Both the position numbers and the translations under genes were made by a program. A model generated the notes under the pieces. That model searched no databases, had not been told where the DNA came from, and saw nothing but the letters and a program-made list of their open reading frames with translations. Of a DNA stretch of 64,000 nt, positions 2,353 to 62,149 are shown in pieces. The stretch lies in contig JACMJZ010000032.1 of assembly GCA_014380365.1 (NCBI GenBank), positions 104,860-168,859 on the forward strand, given 5' to 3'. The first letter of the stretch is position 1, and every line of letters begins with the position of its first letter. This DNA is from Pyrinomonadaceae bacterium. GTDB taxonomy: Bacteria; Acidobacteriota; Blastocatellia; Pyrinomonadales; Pyrinomonadaceae.

Positions 2353-2586
2353 TTACTTTTCTAAGAGCGTTCTTACGCTGCTTATGATCTTCGCGGAGCG
2401 GGGATACCATAGCCGATTCGAATCGAGCACTTTTTCGCCGTCGATAACGACGCTGAACTCACCCAACCCGCCTCTGAGTTTTATCACTTCAACATCGTCG
2501 TCTTGGTTTAGTTCAGCCGCCACCCGGGCGGCTATGCTTTGCTTGATCGGTCAAACCGGGCAGTAATGGATCTCAACCTTTTTCAT
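2353..2586 (-). CDS. SelW/Rdx-like selenoprotein (77 aa, Sec12 encoded by in-frame TGA at 2551..2553)
   Basis: ATG 2586..2584, MKKVEIHYCPV-U-PIKQSIAARVAAELNQDDDVEVIKLRGGLGEFSVVIDGEKVLDSNRLWYPRSAKIISSVRTLLEK, TAA 2355..2353. CxxU motif, Rdx-family pattern and a downstream SECIS-like hairpin. Confidence 0.8.
2515..2533 (-). promoter_or_regulatory. SECIS-like stem-loop for the SelW-like gene
   Basis: mRNA AGCCGCC-CGGGU-GGCGGCU: 7-bp GC-rich stem with a G-rich 5-nt loop, starting 17 nt after the UGA. Confidence 0.5.
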
Positions 2587-52351: not shown

Positions 52352-52861
52352 TCATTCAATTTTCAGCCACAACTTTTCTTCTTTAGTCTGCGGCGGAAAA
52401 CAAACCTCATCGTCGCAGCTTTGATATCTCACTTTTGCTTTTATCTCCGCCGTACCGGTGGCAAAGTTTCGCGGCACCATTACGCTGAAGCGCATCGTCA
52501 CCCGTCCCTCGTATACCGCGACTCTGTTCCTGGAAAACTTCAGGTTGCGCAATAGTGCACGCGGATAAGTCACCGGCCCCACCCGCAGACCGTTCGGCGC
52601 TTCAACCTGAAGTTGGGTGGCAATCAGAAACCTCTCCAGAGGTTTATTCGAATGAACGTGGAACCCGCGTGGAATTTCCATCACCACCGTTGCCTGCGCG
52701 GTTCGCCCACGGCCGACCTTAGCCGGTGTAAAATTTCCCTTGATGGATATGTTTGGCTGGGCGTTTGCCGTCGCCGCCGAATAGAAACCGCCGGAGAAAA
52801 GTGTGAAGACCGCTAATAGAAGAAAGCGTTTTGCTGAATGGTTGAATCTTGATGGCTGCAT
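52352..52861 (-). CDS. DsbD N-terminal-domain-like periplasmic thiol-disulfide protein
   Basis: Signal peptide. HVHSNKP and YQSCDDEVCFPP motifs typical of the DsbD alpha domain. GAGGA upstream of ATG 52861. Confidence 0.7.
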   Translation of the reverse strand: MQPSRFNHSAKRFLLLAVFTLFSGGFYSAATANAQPNISIKGNFTPAKVGRGRTAQATVVMEIPRGFHVHSNKPLERFLIATQLQVEAPNGLRVGPVTYPRALLRNLKFSRNRVAVYEGRVTMRFSVMVPRNFATGTAEIKAKVRYQSCDDEVCFPPQTKEEKLWLKIE

Positions 52862-52880
52862 CGGTTCCTCGATTATTTGT

Positions 52881-53987
52881 TTAGTTAACCTGGGCCAGAA
52901 CTGAATTGATGTTTGGCGGCGGTGGATTAGTATCCCGCCGGGCGGCAAGTTGGCCGCAGGCGGCAAAGATGTCGCGGCCCCGCGGCCTGCGGACGAAACT
53001 GCGCACGCCCTTCGACTCAAGGACTGACTGAAACTGCGTCACCCTTTCAGCGGGCGACGGCTGATAGGGCAGCGGGTCCGCCGGGTTATGGGGAATCAAA
53101 TTCACTTTCGCGTGGAGAGCATGGCGGTTGAGCAGGTTGGCGAGTTGCCGCGCATGCTCATCTGAGTCGTTGATGCCATCGAGCAGGACATACTCAACCG
53201 TAAATCGCTCGCCCGTTTTTAGTGTCTTCTCAAACTCCTTACACGCGCCGAGTAATTCCTCGAGCGGCCATTTCTTGTTGATGGGCATTAGCTCGTTGCG
53301 CTGTTCATTGGTTGGCGCGCCCATCGAGATCGCCAGGTGCGGGCGGTCGGGAATCGTCGCCAGCTCGAGAATGCGAGGCACAACTCCGGCCGTTGAAATC
53401 GTCACCCGATTGGGGACGATGAATAACCCTTGTGGGTCAGCCATAACTCGCAACGCTTTGATGAGTTCATCGAAGTTAAGAAACGGTTCGCCCGCACCCA
53501 TGCCGACGAGGTTGGTGCCCCGGGGCGGCTTCACCCCAACACCGTAGGCGTCGTTGAGCGCGATGATTATCTGTTCCACGATTTCGCCGGCGGTTAACGA
53601 ACGAAGCAAACCCAATTGGGCCGTAAGGCAAAAAGTGCACTGGAGTGGGCAGCCGGATTGGGACGAAAAACAGATTGTGTCGCGATGTTCTTCGGGAATG
53701 AAAACCGTCTCGACGGGAAGATTGTCGTGCGTCTTCATCAAAAAGCGACGTGTTCCGTCGTCAGAGATGTAACGCGATTCAACCGTGAGCGTCGCAGCAG
53801 AGGCCGTTTCGTTTAGCCGCGTTCGCAGGTGCTTAGGGAGATCTGACATTTCATCAAACGATCGCAATCTTCGCTGGTGTAACCCGCCGAAGACCTGGCG
53901 TGCGCGATAGGCAGGTTCACCCATTCCTTCCATGAAGGAGACCACGCCTGACTGGCTCAAACCCATTAGCTGAACGCGACTTTCCAT
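52881..53987 (-). CDS. rlmN: 23S rRNA/tRNA (adenine-C2)-methyltransferase RlmN (radical SAM)
   Basis: YRARQVFGGLHQ..., SSQSGCPLQCTFCLT (CxxxCxxC), GMGEPFLN and AACGQL. Start taken at ATG 53987. Confidence 0.9.
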   Translation of the reverse strand: MESRVQLMGLSQSGVVSFMEGMGEPAYRARQVFGGLHQRRLRSFDEMSDLPKHLRTRLNETASAATLTVESRYISDDGTRRFLMKTHDNLPVETVFIPEEHRDTICFSSQSGCPLQCTFCLTAQLGLLRSLTAGEIVEQIIIALNDAYGVGVKPPRGTNLVGMGAGEPFLNFDELIKALRVMADPQGLFIVPNRVTISTAGVVPRILELATIPDRPHLAISMGAPTNEQRNELMPINKKWPLEELLGACKEFEKTLKTGERFTVEYVLLDGINDSDEHARQLANLLNRHALHAKVNLIPHNPADPLPYQPSPAERVTQFQSVLESKGVRSFVRRPRGRDIFAACGQLAARRDTNPPPPNINSVLAQVN

Positions 53988-59733: not shown

Positions 59734-59815
59734 ATATACATTTTCACCGGCGTTTGTGCTCTAAGCGTATCTTCAATATCATGCGACCCCAGGCGCGGTG
59801 CCCCCAATACAACTT

Positions 59816-61402
59816 ATGAACACTACGAAGACACTCTCGATTTTTACGTTCCTGCTTCTGATTGCGACAACAATGTCCGCCCAGTCTCCCAGAAGGAGAG
59901 GCGGCGTCCGAACGCCTGGTGCGAAGCCCCCAGCTACTCAGCCAGCGAAGCCAGCAGCGCAACCAGCAGCGATACCCGCAGTCACACCCAGGCCCGCATC
60001 CGTGGCGGCGCCAAAGGCCCCGGTCCTGCTGGCGGTTGTGAATGGCCAAAACATCACGACGGCGGATATTGATCCAAGGGTGCGGGAGCTAGTGGAGACT
60101 CTGGACGCGAGAATCGCAGGGGCGCGCAACCAAATCCTGGAGATGGAAATCAACACCTTGCTACTCGCCAGCGAAGCGAACAGGCGAAAGCTAACTCCCC
60201 AACAGTTTTACGATCTCGAGGTCACCAGAAAGATTACTGACCCTCCGGCTGCGGAAGTCGACAAGTTCATCGAGGACAATCGCGAAGAACTCAAGCAAGT
60301 CGATCCGGCGGCGGCGCGCAAACAGGTCGTTGAGTATTTACGTGGCGAACGCGAGGCGGCTATTTCCGCAGCGTTAGTTAAACGTCTTCGCGCCTCAACT
60401 TCGGTGGTCAAGGGCGCTCTCCCCAGTGCTTCGGATTTACCGGCGTCAGCGGTCATGGCAACAATCGGAGGACGCGCCATCACCGCGGGGACCATAAATG
60501 AACGACTCAAGCCCATTGCCTACGACATGCGGGTGAATGCCTACCGTCCGCAACGACAGGCGCTGGATCAGACAATCGACGACATGCTTTTGATCGCGGA
60601 GGCTAACCGGCGTAGCGTCGGGCCCGAGCAAATTATACGCACGGAAATCAGCGATAAAGTGCGCCCGCCCACCGAACAGGAGATAGCCAAGTTTTTCACT
60701 GACAACAAAGCGAGCATGAAGGGCGACCTTGCTTCAGTGCGTGATCAGATTGCGCAGTTCCTACAGGATCAGAATCAGGTTCGACTGGAGGAGGAGCTCT
60801 CCCTGCGGCTGCGCAAAGGCGCGAATATTCGAATACTCCTCTCCGAACCGACACCTCCAGCCCAGGCGGTAAGCGTCGACGACGATCCTGTACGCGGACC
60901 TGCAAGCGCAGCGGTCACCGTCGTCGAGTTTACGGACTTCCAATGTCCTTCGTGCGCCGCCATGCATCCGGTTTTGGAGGAAGTGCTGAAGTCGTACGGC
61001 GCGAAGGTGAGATTTGTCGTGCGGGATTTCCCGCTTGCCATGCACCCTCAGGCGCGGAAAGCGGCGGAGGCCGCGAATGCCGCACATGCTCAGGGCAAGT
61101 TCTTCGAGTATGCCGCGCTGCTTTTCAAACGCCAGAATGCGCTCGATGTTCCTTCACTGAAAAAGTATGCGACGGAACTGGGCCTGGATCGCGTTCGCTT
61201 TGACGCAGCGCTCGATGGGGGAAAGTTTGCCGATGAAGTGCGACATGACGTCGCGCAGGGCGAGTTGTATGGCGTTGGCGCAACGCCCACGATCTTTGTC
61301 AATGGAGTCATGCTCACCGAGTTGACTAGCGAAGGATTGCGAGCCGCGATCGACCGCGCACTCGCAACGCCCAATTCAGCGCCCAAAGTTTCCGCGAAGT
61401 AA
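59816..61402 (+). CDS. exported SurA_N-like chaperone domains fused to a DsbA-family thioredoxin domain
   Basis: Signal peptide MNTTKTLSIFTFLLLIATTMSA. Two SurA-N-like segments. C-terminal VVEFTDFQCPSCAAMHP (CxxC) with the DsbA pattern. Confidence 0.8.
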   Translation: MNTTKTLSIFTFLLLIATTMSAQSPRRRGGVRTPGAKPPATQPAKPAAQPAAIPAVTPRPASVAAPKAPVLLAVVNGQNITTADIDPRVRELVETLDARIAGARNQILEMEINTLLLASEANRRKLTPQQFYDLEVTRKITDPPAAEVDKFIEDNREELKQVDPAAARKQVVEYLRGEREAAISAALVKRLRASTSVVKGALPSASDLPASAVMATIGGRAITAGTINERLKPIAYDMRVNAYRPQRQALDQTIDDMLLIAEANRRSVGPEQIIRTEISDKVRPPTEQEIAKFFTDNKASMKGDLASVRDQIAQFLQDQNQVRLEEELSLRLRKGANIRILLSEPTPPAQAVSVDDDPVRGPASAAVTVVEFTDFQCPSCAAMHPVLEEVLKSYGAKVRFVVRDFPLAMHPQARKAAEAANAAHAQGKFFEYAALLFKRQNALDVPSLKKYATELGLDRVRFDAALDGGKFADEVRHDVAQGELYGVGATPTIFVNGVMLTELTSEGLRAAIDRALATPNSAPKVSAK

Positions 61403-61410
61403 ACCTTTCT

Positions 61411-61995
61411 TCAGTTCGCTTTTTTTCGGGTCAAAATATTACACGCCTCAACCACGCTGGTGGGATCGATAGCCGAGTTTCCTTCGTCGATGTGACGAAT
61501 GATCCCCTCTTTATCGATCACAAAAGTTGCCCGGTTGCCGAACCCCTGCTCTTCGTTGAAGATTCCGTAGTCCTTAACCACGGTGCGTTTGAAGTCACTT
61601 AGTAGCGGAAAGGTGACGCCAATCTGCTTGGCAAACTCGCGGTTAGCGGGAACGCTGTCAACACTGAGTCCAAATACCTGCGTGTCAGTTGCTTCGAATT
61701 TGGCAATACCAGCCTGGTACGCCTGCATTTCCTTCGTTCAACCACCGGTGAACGCCAGCACGTATGCGGCGATCACGACATTCTTCTGACCTTTGAAGTC
61801 GCTCAACTTGTACGTCTTGCCGTCCGTTGCGCGCAGCGTAAAGTCCGGCGCCGGCTGGCCAACCTGCAGGTGCGTCTTCGGCGCCGCCGGCCGAGGCGCG
61901 GGGCTTGCGGCCGGTGACGGCGCGGGCGCTTGCGCAAATGCCGACACGGCAAGAGACGCCAGCAAGACCACCAACGTTAAGGATCTCTTAATCAT
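61411..61995 (-). CDS. exported peroxiredoxin-like (AhpC/TSA-redoxin) selenoprotein, Sec86 encoded by TGA 61738..61740
   Basis: Two same-frame ORFs join through the TGA: ...[42 protein letters not shown]...FPLLSDF...[20 protein letters not shown] lies 7 nt upstream of ATG 61995. Signal peptide present. Confidence 0.8.
61702..61723 (-). promoter_or_regulatory. SECIS-like stem-loop for the Prx-like gene
   Basis: mRNA GGCG-UACCA-GGC-UGGUA-U-UGCC: 9 bp with one bulged U and a G-rich apical loop, starting 14 nt after the UGA. Confidence 0.4.
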
Positions 61996-62149
61996 TCCGA
62001 ATCTCCTCTCAACAGCTTCCGACAAACTTATGGCAAAAAGCTACTTTACAAACGCTTGTCGCAGGATAAACGCTAGCGCGCGGTGGAGCAAGGTCTAGTA
62101 CAATTCGATAGTATCCTGAACTTGAATTGATCGAATTCGAAGCCTGGAC

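Follow-up and report, generated by a model that had tools for sequence, protein, structure and literature searches.

The window analyzed here, a 64,000-nt stretch of contig JACMJZ010000032.1 from a Pyrinomonadaceae bacterium, carries on its minus strand two open reading frames (ORFs) that lie in the same frame (61738..62025 and 61411..61728) and are parted only by a TGA (61738..61740) and the three codons ACG AAG GAA. Joined, as translation and the Pfam match both support, they make a coding sequence of 194 codons (61411..61995), in which the in-frame UGA is codon 86 and the stop is the TGA at 61411..61413. The start codon is an ATG (61995..61993) with a Shine-Dalgarno-like GAGGAG (62003..62008, minus strand) 7 nt upstream. 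We read this region as a single gene, which encodes an exported, AhpE-like peroxiredoxin whose peroxidatic residue is selenocysteine (Sec), specified by the UGA, and give this reading a probability of roughly 0.87. The ORF arrangement, the joined translation and the start site are those described by an initial annotation of the same DNA, and they could be read directly from the sequence.

The split gene and its protein

With Cys put in place of the stop, the joined translation matched the Pfam family AhpC-TSA (PF00578) with an E value of 4.6e-38 and 130.4 bits (cut-off, 26). The match takes in the whole 124-position model (1-124) and runs from residue 45 to residue 169 of the protein, and since the domain spans the TGA, neither half is a complete fold alone. 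The best solved relatives by sequence were the structures of AhpE from Mycobacterium tuberculosis (MtAhpE; E = 2.6e-28). An AlphaFold2 (AF2) model of a 77%-identical Cys paralogue (P0002), used here as the structural model in place of the window protein (predicted local distance difference test score of 88.8), superposes on AhpE in Foldseek with a target-normalised template modelling score of 0.88-0.91, a root mean square deviation of 1.5-1.7 Å and 40% identity; Sulfolobus Bcp4 and Bcp1 were the next-closest structures. Since AhpE is the top match by sequence and by fold, we call the protein AhpE-like, a placement within the peroxiredoxin superfamily and not a formal subfamily assignment. It departs from the AhpE subfamily, marked by a 1-Cys mechanism and a cytoplasmic location, in having a conserved C-terminal Cys and a signal peptide. 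No NCBIfam model reached its cut-off, the PrxU equivalog NF040737 giving 73.8 bits against the 270 required.

In alignments, the UGA falls exactly on Cys45, the peroxidatic residue of MtAhpE, in the string LAFTG-x-C (LAFTG-I-C in that enzyme), and on the Cys in the orthologues from Bryobacterales and Archangiaceae. The initial annotation had placed it at the peroxidatic position (here F-T-G-G-U-T-K-E), and the alignment of Cys homologues locates the catalytic Cys there and not elsewhere. Thr83, residue 86 (U in the Sec forms, Cys in the others) and Arg155 (codon CGG, 61531..61533, minus strand) are invariant in 44/44 Sec forms and 8/8 Cys forms, and together they make up the peroxidatic constellation. 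The Arg lies in the motif N-R-A-T-F-V-I-D, which aligns with ANRGTFVVD of MtAhpE.

Val79 (codon GTG, 61759..61761, minus strand) stands where the PxxxTxxC motif has its canonical Pro. Among the 44 Sec forms this residue is Val in 38, Ile in three, Ala in one and Pro in two (loci L045 and L050), whereas all eight Cys forms have Pro; the change from Cys to Sec and the loss of Pro appear, from these alignments, to go together. This Pro has been termed absolutely or highly conserved in the motif, be it in its Cys or its Sec version (PMC3322552, PMC13188914). A further conserved residue, Cys185 (codon TGT, 61441..61443, minus strand), is invariant in three family alignments (A1, A3 and A4), present in 42 of the 44 Sec forms and, in the AF2 model, part of the C-terminal helix, and it is the candidate resolving residue.

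The first 21 residues (61933..61995, minus strand) form a signal peptide, with a basic Lys/Arg n-region (MIKR), a 14-residue hydrophobic core (maximum 12-residue Kyte-Doolittle value of 2.81) and the cleavage motif A-F-A followed by Q. Between it and the peroxiredoxin domain lies a 19-residue Ala/Pro-rich linker (61876..61932, minus strand), an insertion relative to homologues that varies in length. Of 51 family N-termini, 46 share this signal-peptide design, Sec and Cys forms alike, as judged by a heuristic analysis. In the AF2 model of the paralogue, residues 4-19 of the signal segment form a helix, modelled with low confidence and detached from the fold. Both elements had been noted before, and they prove to be present and, in the case of the signal peptide, a trait of the family, export itself being a prediction from sequence. 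As there is no twin-arginine motif in the window N-terminus, we infer export by the Sec secretion pathway. Exported proteins of both kinds have been documented, the peroxiredoxin PprX on the one hand (PMC3322552) and SaoB and other bacterial selenoproteins on the other (10.1101/2022.07.06.499078). Three Pyrinomonadaceae loci (L023, L030 and L032) have a lipobox-like LxxC instead of AxA (…GLSVCSLSCQ, …SLCGLACQ and …LALCSLSCQ), along with long low-complexity linkers, which suggests lipid-anchored versions of the enzyme. The member from Dehalococcoidia (L050) has no signal peptide.

Conservation of the UGA and of the downstream hairpin

We collected 129 Sec-form loci: 44 from a genome scan in which each GTDB species was represented once (43 by motif scan plus L026), four by exact protein look-up, 80 from metagenomes and the window itself. 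All 129 have TGA at the catalytic column, the 80 metagenome loci included, and their protein identities range from 50 to 94%. The hosts are Pyrinomonadaceae, other Blastocatellia, Chloracidobacterium, Ca. Acidoferrum/Acidiferrum and one member of the Dehalococcoidia. TGC or TGT stands at the same site in the orthologues of Bryobacterales/Sulfopaludibacter, of one unclassified Acidobacteriota metagenome-assembled genome and of Archangiaceae. In a rough neighbor-joining tree, the Sec forms make one large clade, sister to the Cys forms of Bryobacterales, with the Sec forms L043 and L050 outside it. The latter (Dehalococcoidia, CAZQVD010000085.1, ~8824) is a distant Sec form reading FPAAFTGG[TGA]TSQ, and its downstream hairpin is different (CUCCUCG...CAUCG-UGC-GAUG...CGAGGAG), which makes an independent conversion from Cys to Sec probable. 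The searches also returned another kind of Sec-peroxiredoxin, of the PrxU/Prx1 type, in a Zixiibacteriota contig (L077; QNAG01000003.1, ~12318; FYPGDFTFV[TGA]PTE), which has a Cys paralogue (FTFVCPSE, at ~10132) ~2 kb away on the same contig.

Both sides of the TGA evolve as coding sequence, the codons in which the window differs from its relatives being for the most part synonymous on either side. Compared with locus L001, the window has 20 synonymous and 4 non-synonymous codon differences in the 40 codons upstream of the TGA and 34 synonymous and 9 non-synonymous differences in the 100 codons downstream, and no stop was found within 100 codons after the TGA in any of the 45 loci compared. 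Judging from these substitutions, both halves are translated and under purifying selection. Public databases show the gene in pieces: 46 of the best 120 protein clusters are fragments of 106-108 aa that start right after the TGA (84-94% identity), and elsewhere public gene callers have split the gene into fragments of ~82 and ~106 aa. Many "full-length" products from the Joint Genome Institute (JGI) carry Trp at the site, where the DNA has TGA (L002). This Trp translation occurs on short contigs (P0001, P0003-P0023 and others; L002), apparently through an alternative genetic-code call.

Fourteen nucleotides after the UGA begins a 22-nt hairpin, GGCGUACCAGGCUGGUAUUGCC (GGCG-UACC-AGGCU-GGUA-U-UGCC; 61702..61723, minus strand), with 8 bp, one bulged U and a minimum free energy (MFE) of -10.2 kcal/mol. 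Its 5-nt apical loop, AGGCU (61711..61715, minus strand), is invariant. The published model of the bacterial selenocysteine insertion sequence (SECIS) asks for a loop of 3-9 nt, an upper stem of 4-16 bp, a G in the first two loop positions, a distance of 16-37 nt from UGA to loop and an MFE of -7.5 kcal/mol or lower (PMC13188914, Fig. 2). The window hairpin fits it, with a loop of 5 nt, a stem of 8 bp plus the bulge and 22 nt from UGA to loop, and the loop pattern N1-G-G-N-N2 supplies the G.

Conservation of the structure was examined in 86 distinct sequences of the 45 nt after the UGA, taken from the 129 loci. Standard pairs fill 93.9% of the pair cells, a share that drops to 14-70% once the partner is shifted by 1-3 columns, and five of the eight pairs show two-sided changes (two from G-C to A-U and one each from U-A to C-G, from A-U to U-A and from U-A to G-C). 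Covariation in the stem scored 0.166, compared with 0.086 +/- 0.006 in shuffles, none of which (0/500) reached the observed value, and a set of 43 sequences gave the same picture. Changes that alter the protein are offset in the stem: the Gly (GGU) that the window has for Asp (GAU) is paired with a synonymous UAC for UAU, and a change from Ala to Gln (GCG to CAA) is matched on the opposite stem strand by the synonymous change of AUC GCC to AUU GCA, which results in an unbulged stem of 9 bp. Over codons +7 to +10, synonymous sites vary little (diversity of 0.00-0.09, compared with ~0.4-0.7 elsewhere). A covariance model scored the Sec loci at 45-82 bits and the Cys orthologues, which do not fold into the hairpin, at 14-25 bits, with one hit in the window. 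Rfam returned no family at its gathering threshold or at E <= 10, which is uninformative, as the bacterial SECIS is not a curated family there. The hairpin with a G-rich loop that the initial annotation had picked out is thus conserved, covarying and in agreement with the published bacterial model. The codon directly after the UGA (61735..61737) is almost always ACG (synonymous diversity, 0.09), which suggests that, apart from the hairpin, the 3' context of the recoded stop is under constraint too.

A second candidate selenoprotein gene in the window, also claimed at the outset, stood up. It is SelW/Rdx-like (2353..2586, minus strand) and encodes 77 residues beginning MKKVEIHYCPV[U]PIKQ, with the TGA at 2551..2553 in a CxxU motif (CPVU). 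Its Pfam Rdx score of 21.1 bits falls just under the cut-off of 22.6. A SECIS-like hairpin of its own with a G-rich loop (AGCCGCC-CGGGU-GGCGGCU) follows 16-17 nt after the UGA with -14.1 kcal/mol.

Evidence against selenocysteine and alternative readings

Several observations weigh against a Sec-containing peroxiredoxin at this locus. The folding z-score of the window hairpin as a single sequence is weak (-1.29), and the case for a SECIS therefore rests on the comparison across sequences and not on energy. The canonical Pro of PxxxTxxC/U is gone, so that the active site is not a textbook one, a departure in the motif and not in the fold. We found no conserved reductant gene adjoining the peroxiredoxin when the neighbors of the family loci were compared. 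Finally, the genes for Sec synthesis and insertion did not turn up. In the 64-kb window, ARAGORN found no tRNA at all, Pfam on 29 ORFs found no SelA, SelB or SelD, and tblastn with E. coli SelD and SelA sequences as queries gave nothing; none of selA, selB, selC and selD was found in ~1.8 Mb of DNA flanking the gene in carrier genomes. ARAGORN detected no tRNA-Sec in a set of 37 loci or in the full set, and tblastn of the related loci with an Acidobacteria SelA and E. coli SelD gave no matches. These negatives cover the window and the flanks and are not evidence of absence from the genomes.

Searches for SelA homologues likewise tied no SelA to a Pyrinomonadaceae genome or to a carrier contig. 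One seeded with the Solibacter SelA (PMC1794560 supplement) returned only Bryobacteraceae-like matches; a representative search with cluster look-ups reached NC10, Terriglobales, Gemmatimonadota and other Acidobacteria, with no Pyrinomonadaceae; and one seeded with P0259 reached Terriglobia only, which again does not mean that SelA is absent. The Sec trait itself is on record in the phylum: three selenoprotein families have been listed for Acidobacteria, with SelA and SelB given for Solibacter usitatus (PMC1794560). The literature searched held no link of AhpE to a natural Sec form, or of Blastocatellia or Chloracidobacterium to the Sec trait. Bryobacteraceae encode SelA (named NCBI matches) though their peroxiredoxin orthologue is the Cys form; hence, the Cys form coexists with the Sec trait there.

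The gene next to the peroxiredoxin bears on the first alternative. On the plus strand, at 59798..61402, Pfam identifies a fusion of a SurA_N-like domain with DsbA/Thioredoxin_4, an exported protein with its own signal peptide and a CPSC motif; the joining of a SurA-like N-terminal chaperone domain to DsbA/Thioredoxin_4 is an unusual architecture. The two genes converge, the fusion ORF ending at 61402, 8 nt from the peroxiredoxin stop at 61411. The initial annotation was right about this convergence and its spacing, but the pairing is not conserved beyond the closest lineage: the adjacency is kept in about 12 of the closest loci only, and elsewhere an M48 peptidase, a trypsin-like protease or unrelated genes adjoin the peroxiredoxin. 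The convergence is therefore lineage-local synteny and not a conserved functional link. A stand-alone DsbD N-terminal domain ORF (52352..53020, minus strand; PF11412, 8.1e-14), 8.4 kb from the peroxiredoxin gene, adjoins RlmN, GWxTD and TatC genes and is a possible component of envelope electron transfer, with no link to the peroxiredoxin. A scan for promoters and terminators found no promoter-like site and one terminator-like site, which lies inside the coding sequence and is not above chance expectation.

The protein could be a selenoprotein that works mainly as an envelope redox relay or thiol:disulfide oxidoreductase, passing oxidizing equivalents from peroxide to the SurA-DsbA fusion, for example, much as Prx4 does with PDI in the endoplasmic reticulum. 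The proximity of the exported CPSC fusion in the window and its relatives and the loss of the canonical Pro, which suggests a modified active site, speak for such a role, and selenoproteins of the AhpC/TSA fold that act as thiol:disulfide oxidoreductases exist (PMC9312934). However, the TxxU motif with invariant Thr and Arg is the peroxidatic triad minus Pro and not a UxxC or CxxC motif, the fusion gene is missing beside most family members, whose neighbors are unrelated, and convergent genes are not co-transcribed. We consider a main function of this kind unlikely.

It is more improbable that a standard residue (Trp, Cys or Gly) is inserted at the UGA through codon reassignment or a suppressor tRNA, as the Trp that JGI pipelines put at the site in many homologues might suggest; the Sec machinery not being located in the window or flanks would also agree with this. 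However, the stops of 30 window genes (Pfam-supported or long) are TAA in 13, TGA in nine and TAG in eight, so TGA is an ordinary stop here and has not been reassigned. Moreover, the UGA stands where the catalytic Cys belongs, a place at which no residue but Cys or Sec would be chemically competent, and it is followed at the canonical distance by a conserved hairpin with a SelB-type AGGCU loop; the same window also holds a second gene, with CxxU.

The possibility that the UGA simply terminates translation, giving an exported fragment of 85 residues and a re-initiated C-terminal protein of 105 residues from the ATG at 61728, has very little to recommend it. In the window this ATG lies three codons past the TGA and is preceded by AAGGA, and gene callers do predict 106-aa products that start at it. 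The Met is present in only part of the family, though; the codon is often CTT, CTC, CTA or TTA, which are unable to initiate, so re-initiation cannot be the family's route to the C-terminal half. Neither half would be a complete peroxiredoxin/thioredoxin fold, the C-terminal one would lack both signal peptide and catalytic residue, and the synonymous suppression and the covarying hairpin would be left unexplained. An assembly or sequencing error or a recent pseudogene, with the TGA a mutated TGC or TGT and the gene dead here, would suit a single in-frame stop in one assembly, the commonest signature of error, and the splitting of the gene into two ORFs by public gene callers, but it is ruled out for practical purposes by the same TGA in 129 independent loci of widely differing identity and by purifying selection on both halves with no further stop.

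Proposed mechanism and comparison with known systems

Taking the gene as one for a Sec-peroxiredoxin, the 22-nt hairpin with its AGGCU loop would act as a bacterial SECIS and recruit SelB-GTP-Sec-tRNA(Sec), so that the UGA is read as Sec and not as a stop. The signal peptide would be cleaved after AFA, leaving a mature enzyme in the periplasm or cell envelope. By homology, Sec86, in the F-T-G-G-U pocket with Thr83 and Arg155, would attack hydroperoxides and become a selenenic acid, which Cys185 would most likely resolve to a selenenylsulfide with Sec86. A periplasmic reductant of the thioredoxin fold would then reduce this bond; by analogy with PprX of Caulobacter, this part may fall to a TlpA/ResA-type protein that receives its electrons from DsbD, CcdA or ScsB. 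Sec may be favored in a compartment that has no sulfiredoxin and in which reductant is scarce, since selenenic and seleninic acids are, by our own reasoning, easily re-reduced. As a more speculative extension, to which we attach little likelihood, the coupling of the change from Cys to Sec with the loss of Pro (VxxxTxxU) could reflect a site re-tuned for the oxidizing envelope of soil Acidobacteria, and in some lineages the enzyme may pass peroxide-derived oxidizing equivalents to the SurA-DsbA fusion in a relay like that of Prx4 and PDI.

The prototype Sec-peroxiredoxin is PrxU of Eubacterium acidaminophilum (PF00578/COG1225), reportedly described by Sohling et al. in 2001. The window protein shares with it the AhpC/TSA fold, a Sec in place of the peroxidatic Cys in T-x-x-U and a SECIS that closely follows the UGA within the coding sequence, and its family, like that of PrxU, has Cys orthologues in sister lineages. 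In contrast, the PrxU type has FTFV-U-PTE and is cytoplasmic and found in anaerobes, whereas the clade described here has LAFTGG-U-TKE, a signal peptide and Val for the motif Pro, and belongs to Pyrinomonadaceae and other Blastocatellia. Sec-peroxiredoxins with TxxU are an established family of bacterial selenoproteins (PMC1794560, PMC9312934, PMC13188914), in which Cys has been converted to Sec repeatedly (12 members and five conversion events were counted in 2006; PMC1794560).

With MtAhpE (Rv2238c; PDB 1xvw, 4x1u and 5id2), the family shares the LAFTG-x-C/U string and the NR-x-TFV motif of the catalytic Arg. The mycobacterial enzyme has Cys, keeps the motif Pro (FFPLAFTGIC) and lacks a signal peptide, whereas the family of the window has Sec, is predicted to be exported and carries an additional C-terminal Cys. 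MtAhpE follows a 1-Cys mechanism and relies on mycoredoxin and mycothiol for its reduction, in contrast to a family with Cys185 as candidate resolving residue.

In location, the closest parallel is PprX of Caulobacter crescentus, a peroxiredoxin of the cell envelope with an N-terminal signal sequence; this periplasmic enzyme is reduced through ScsB and TlpA (PMC3322552) and offers a model in which ScsB or DsbD supplies a TlpA-like thioredoxin with electrons. PprX, however, is a Cys enzyme of the BCP/PrxQ subfamily with the canonical PxxxTxxC, and no ScsB or TlpA partner was found adjoining the window gene. Other selenoproteins, the peroxiredoxin-like UxxC/UxxU and UGC proteins, also combine the PF00578 fold with Sec and are often extracytoplasmic redox proteins (PMC9312934), but their Sec lies in a UxxC, UxxU or UGC motif, whereas the window protein has a lone peroxidatic Sec in TxxU and retains the catalytic Arg.

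An abundant gene of soil bacteria is wrong in every pipeline examined, appearing either as fragments of ~82 and ~106 aa or with a false Trp, and as no NCBIfam model covers it, one curated model could mend the affected records. The Sec-linked swap of Pro for Val amounts to a natural experiment on how the active site of a peroxiredoxin adapts to selenium. Cultured Blastocatellia are mostly aerobes. A Sec-peroxiredoxin in this class would then be hard to square with the notion that selenoproteins are seldom retained by aerobes (PMC13188914). The range of Sec-peroxiredoxins is widened to an AhpE-like branch, to a predicted extracytoplasmic location and to Blastocatellia. The concept stays unchanged, this being a variant with Sec for Cys of a known enzyme class; what is new is a populous and mis-annotated clade of that class in Blastocatellia, AhpE-like, with a signal peptide and a Sec-linked replacement of Pro by Val.

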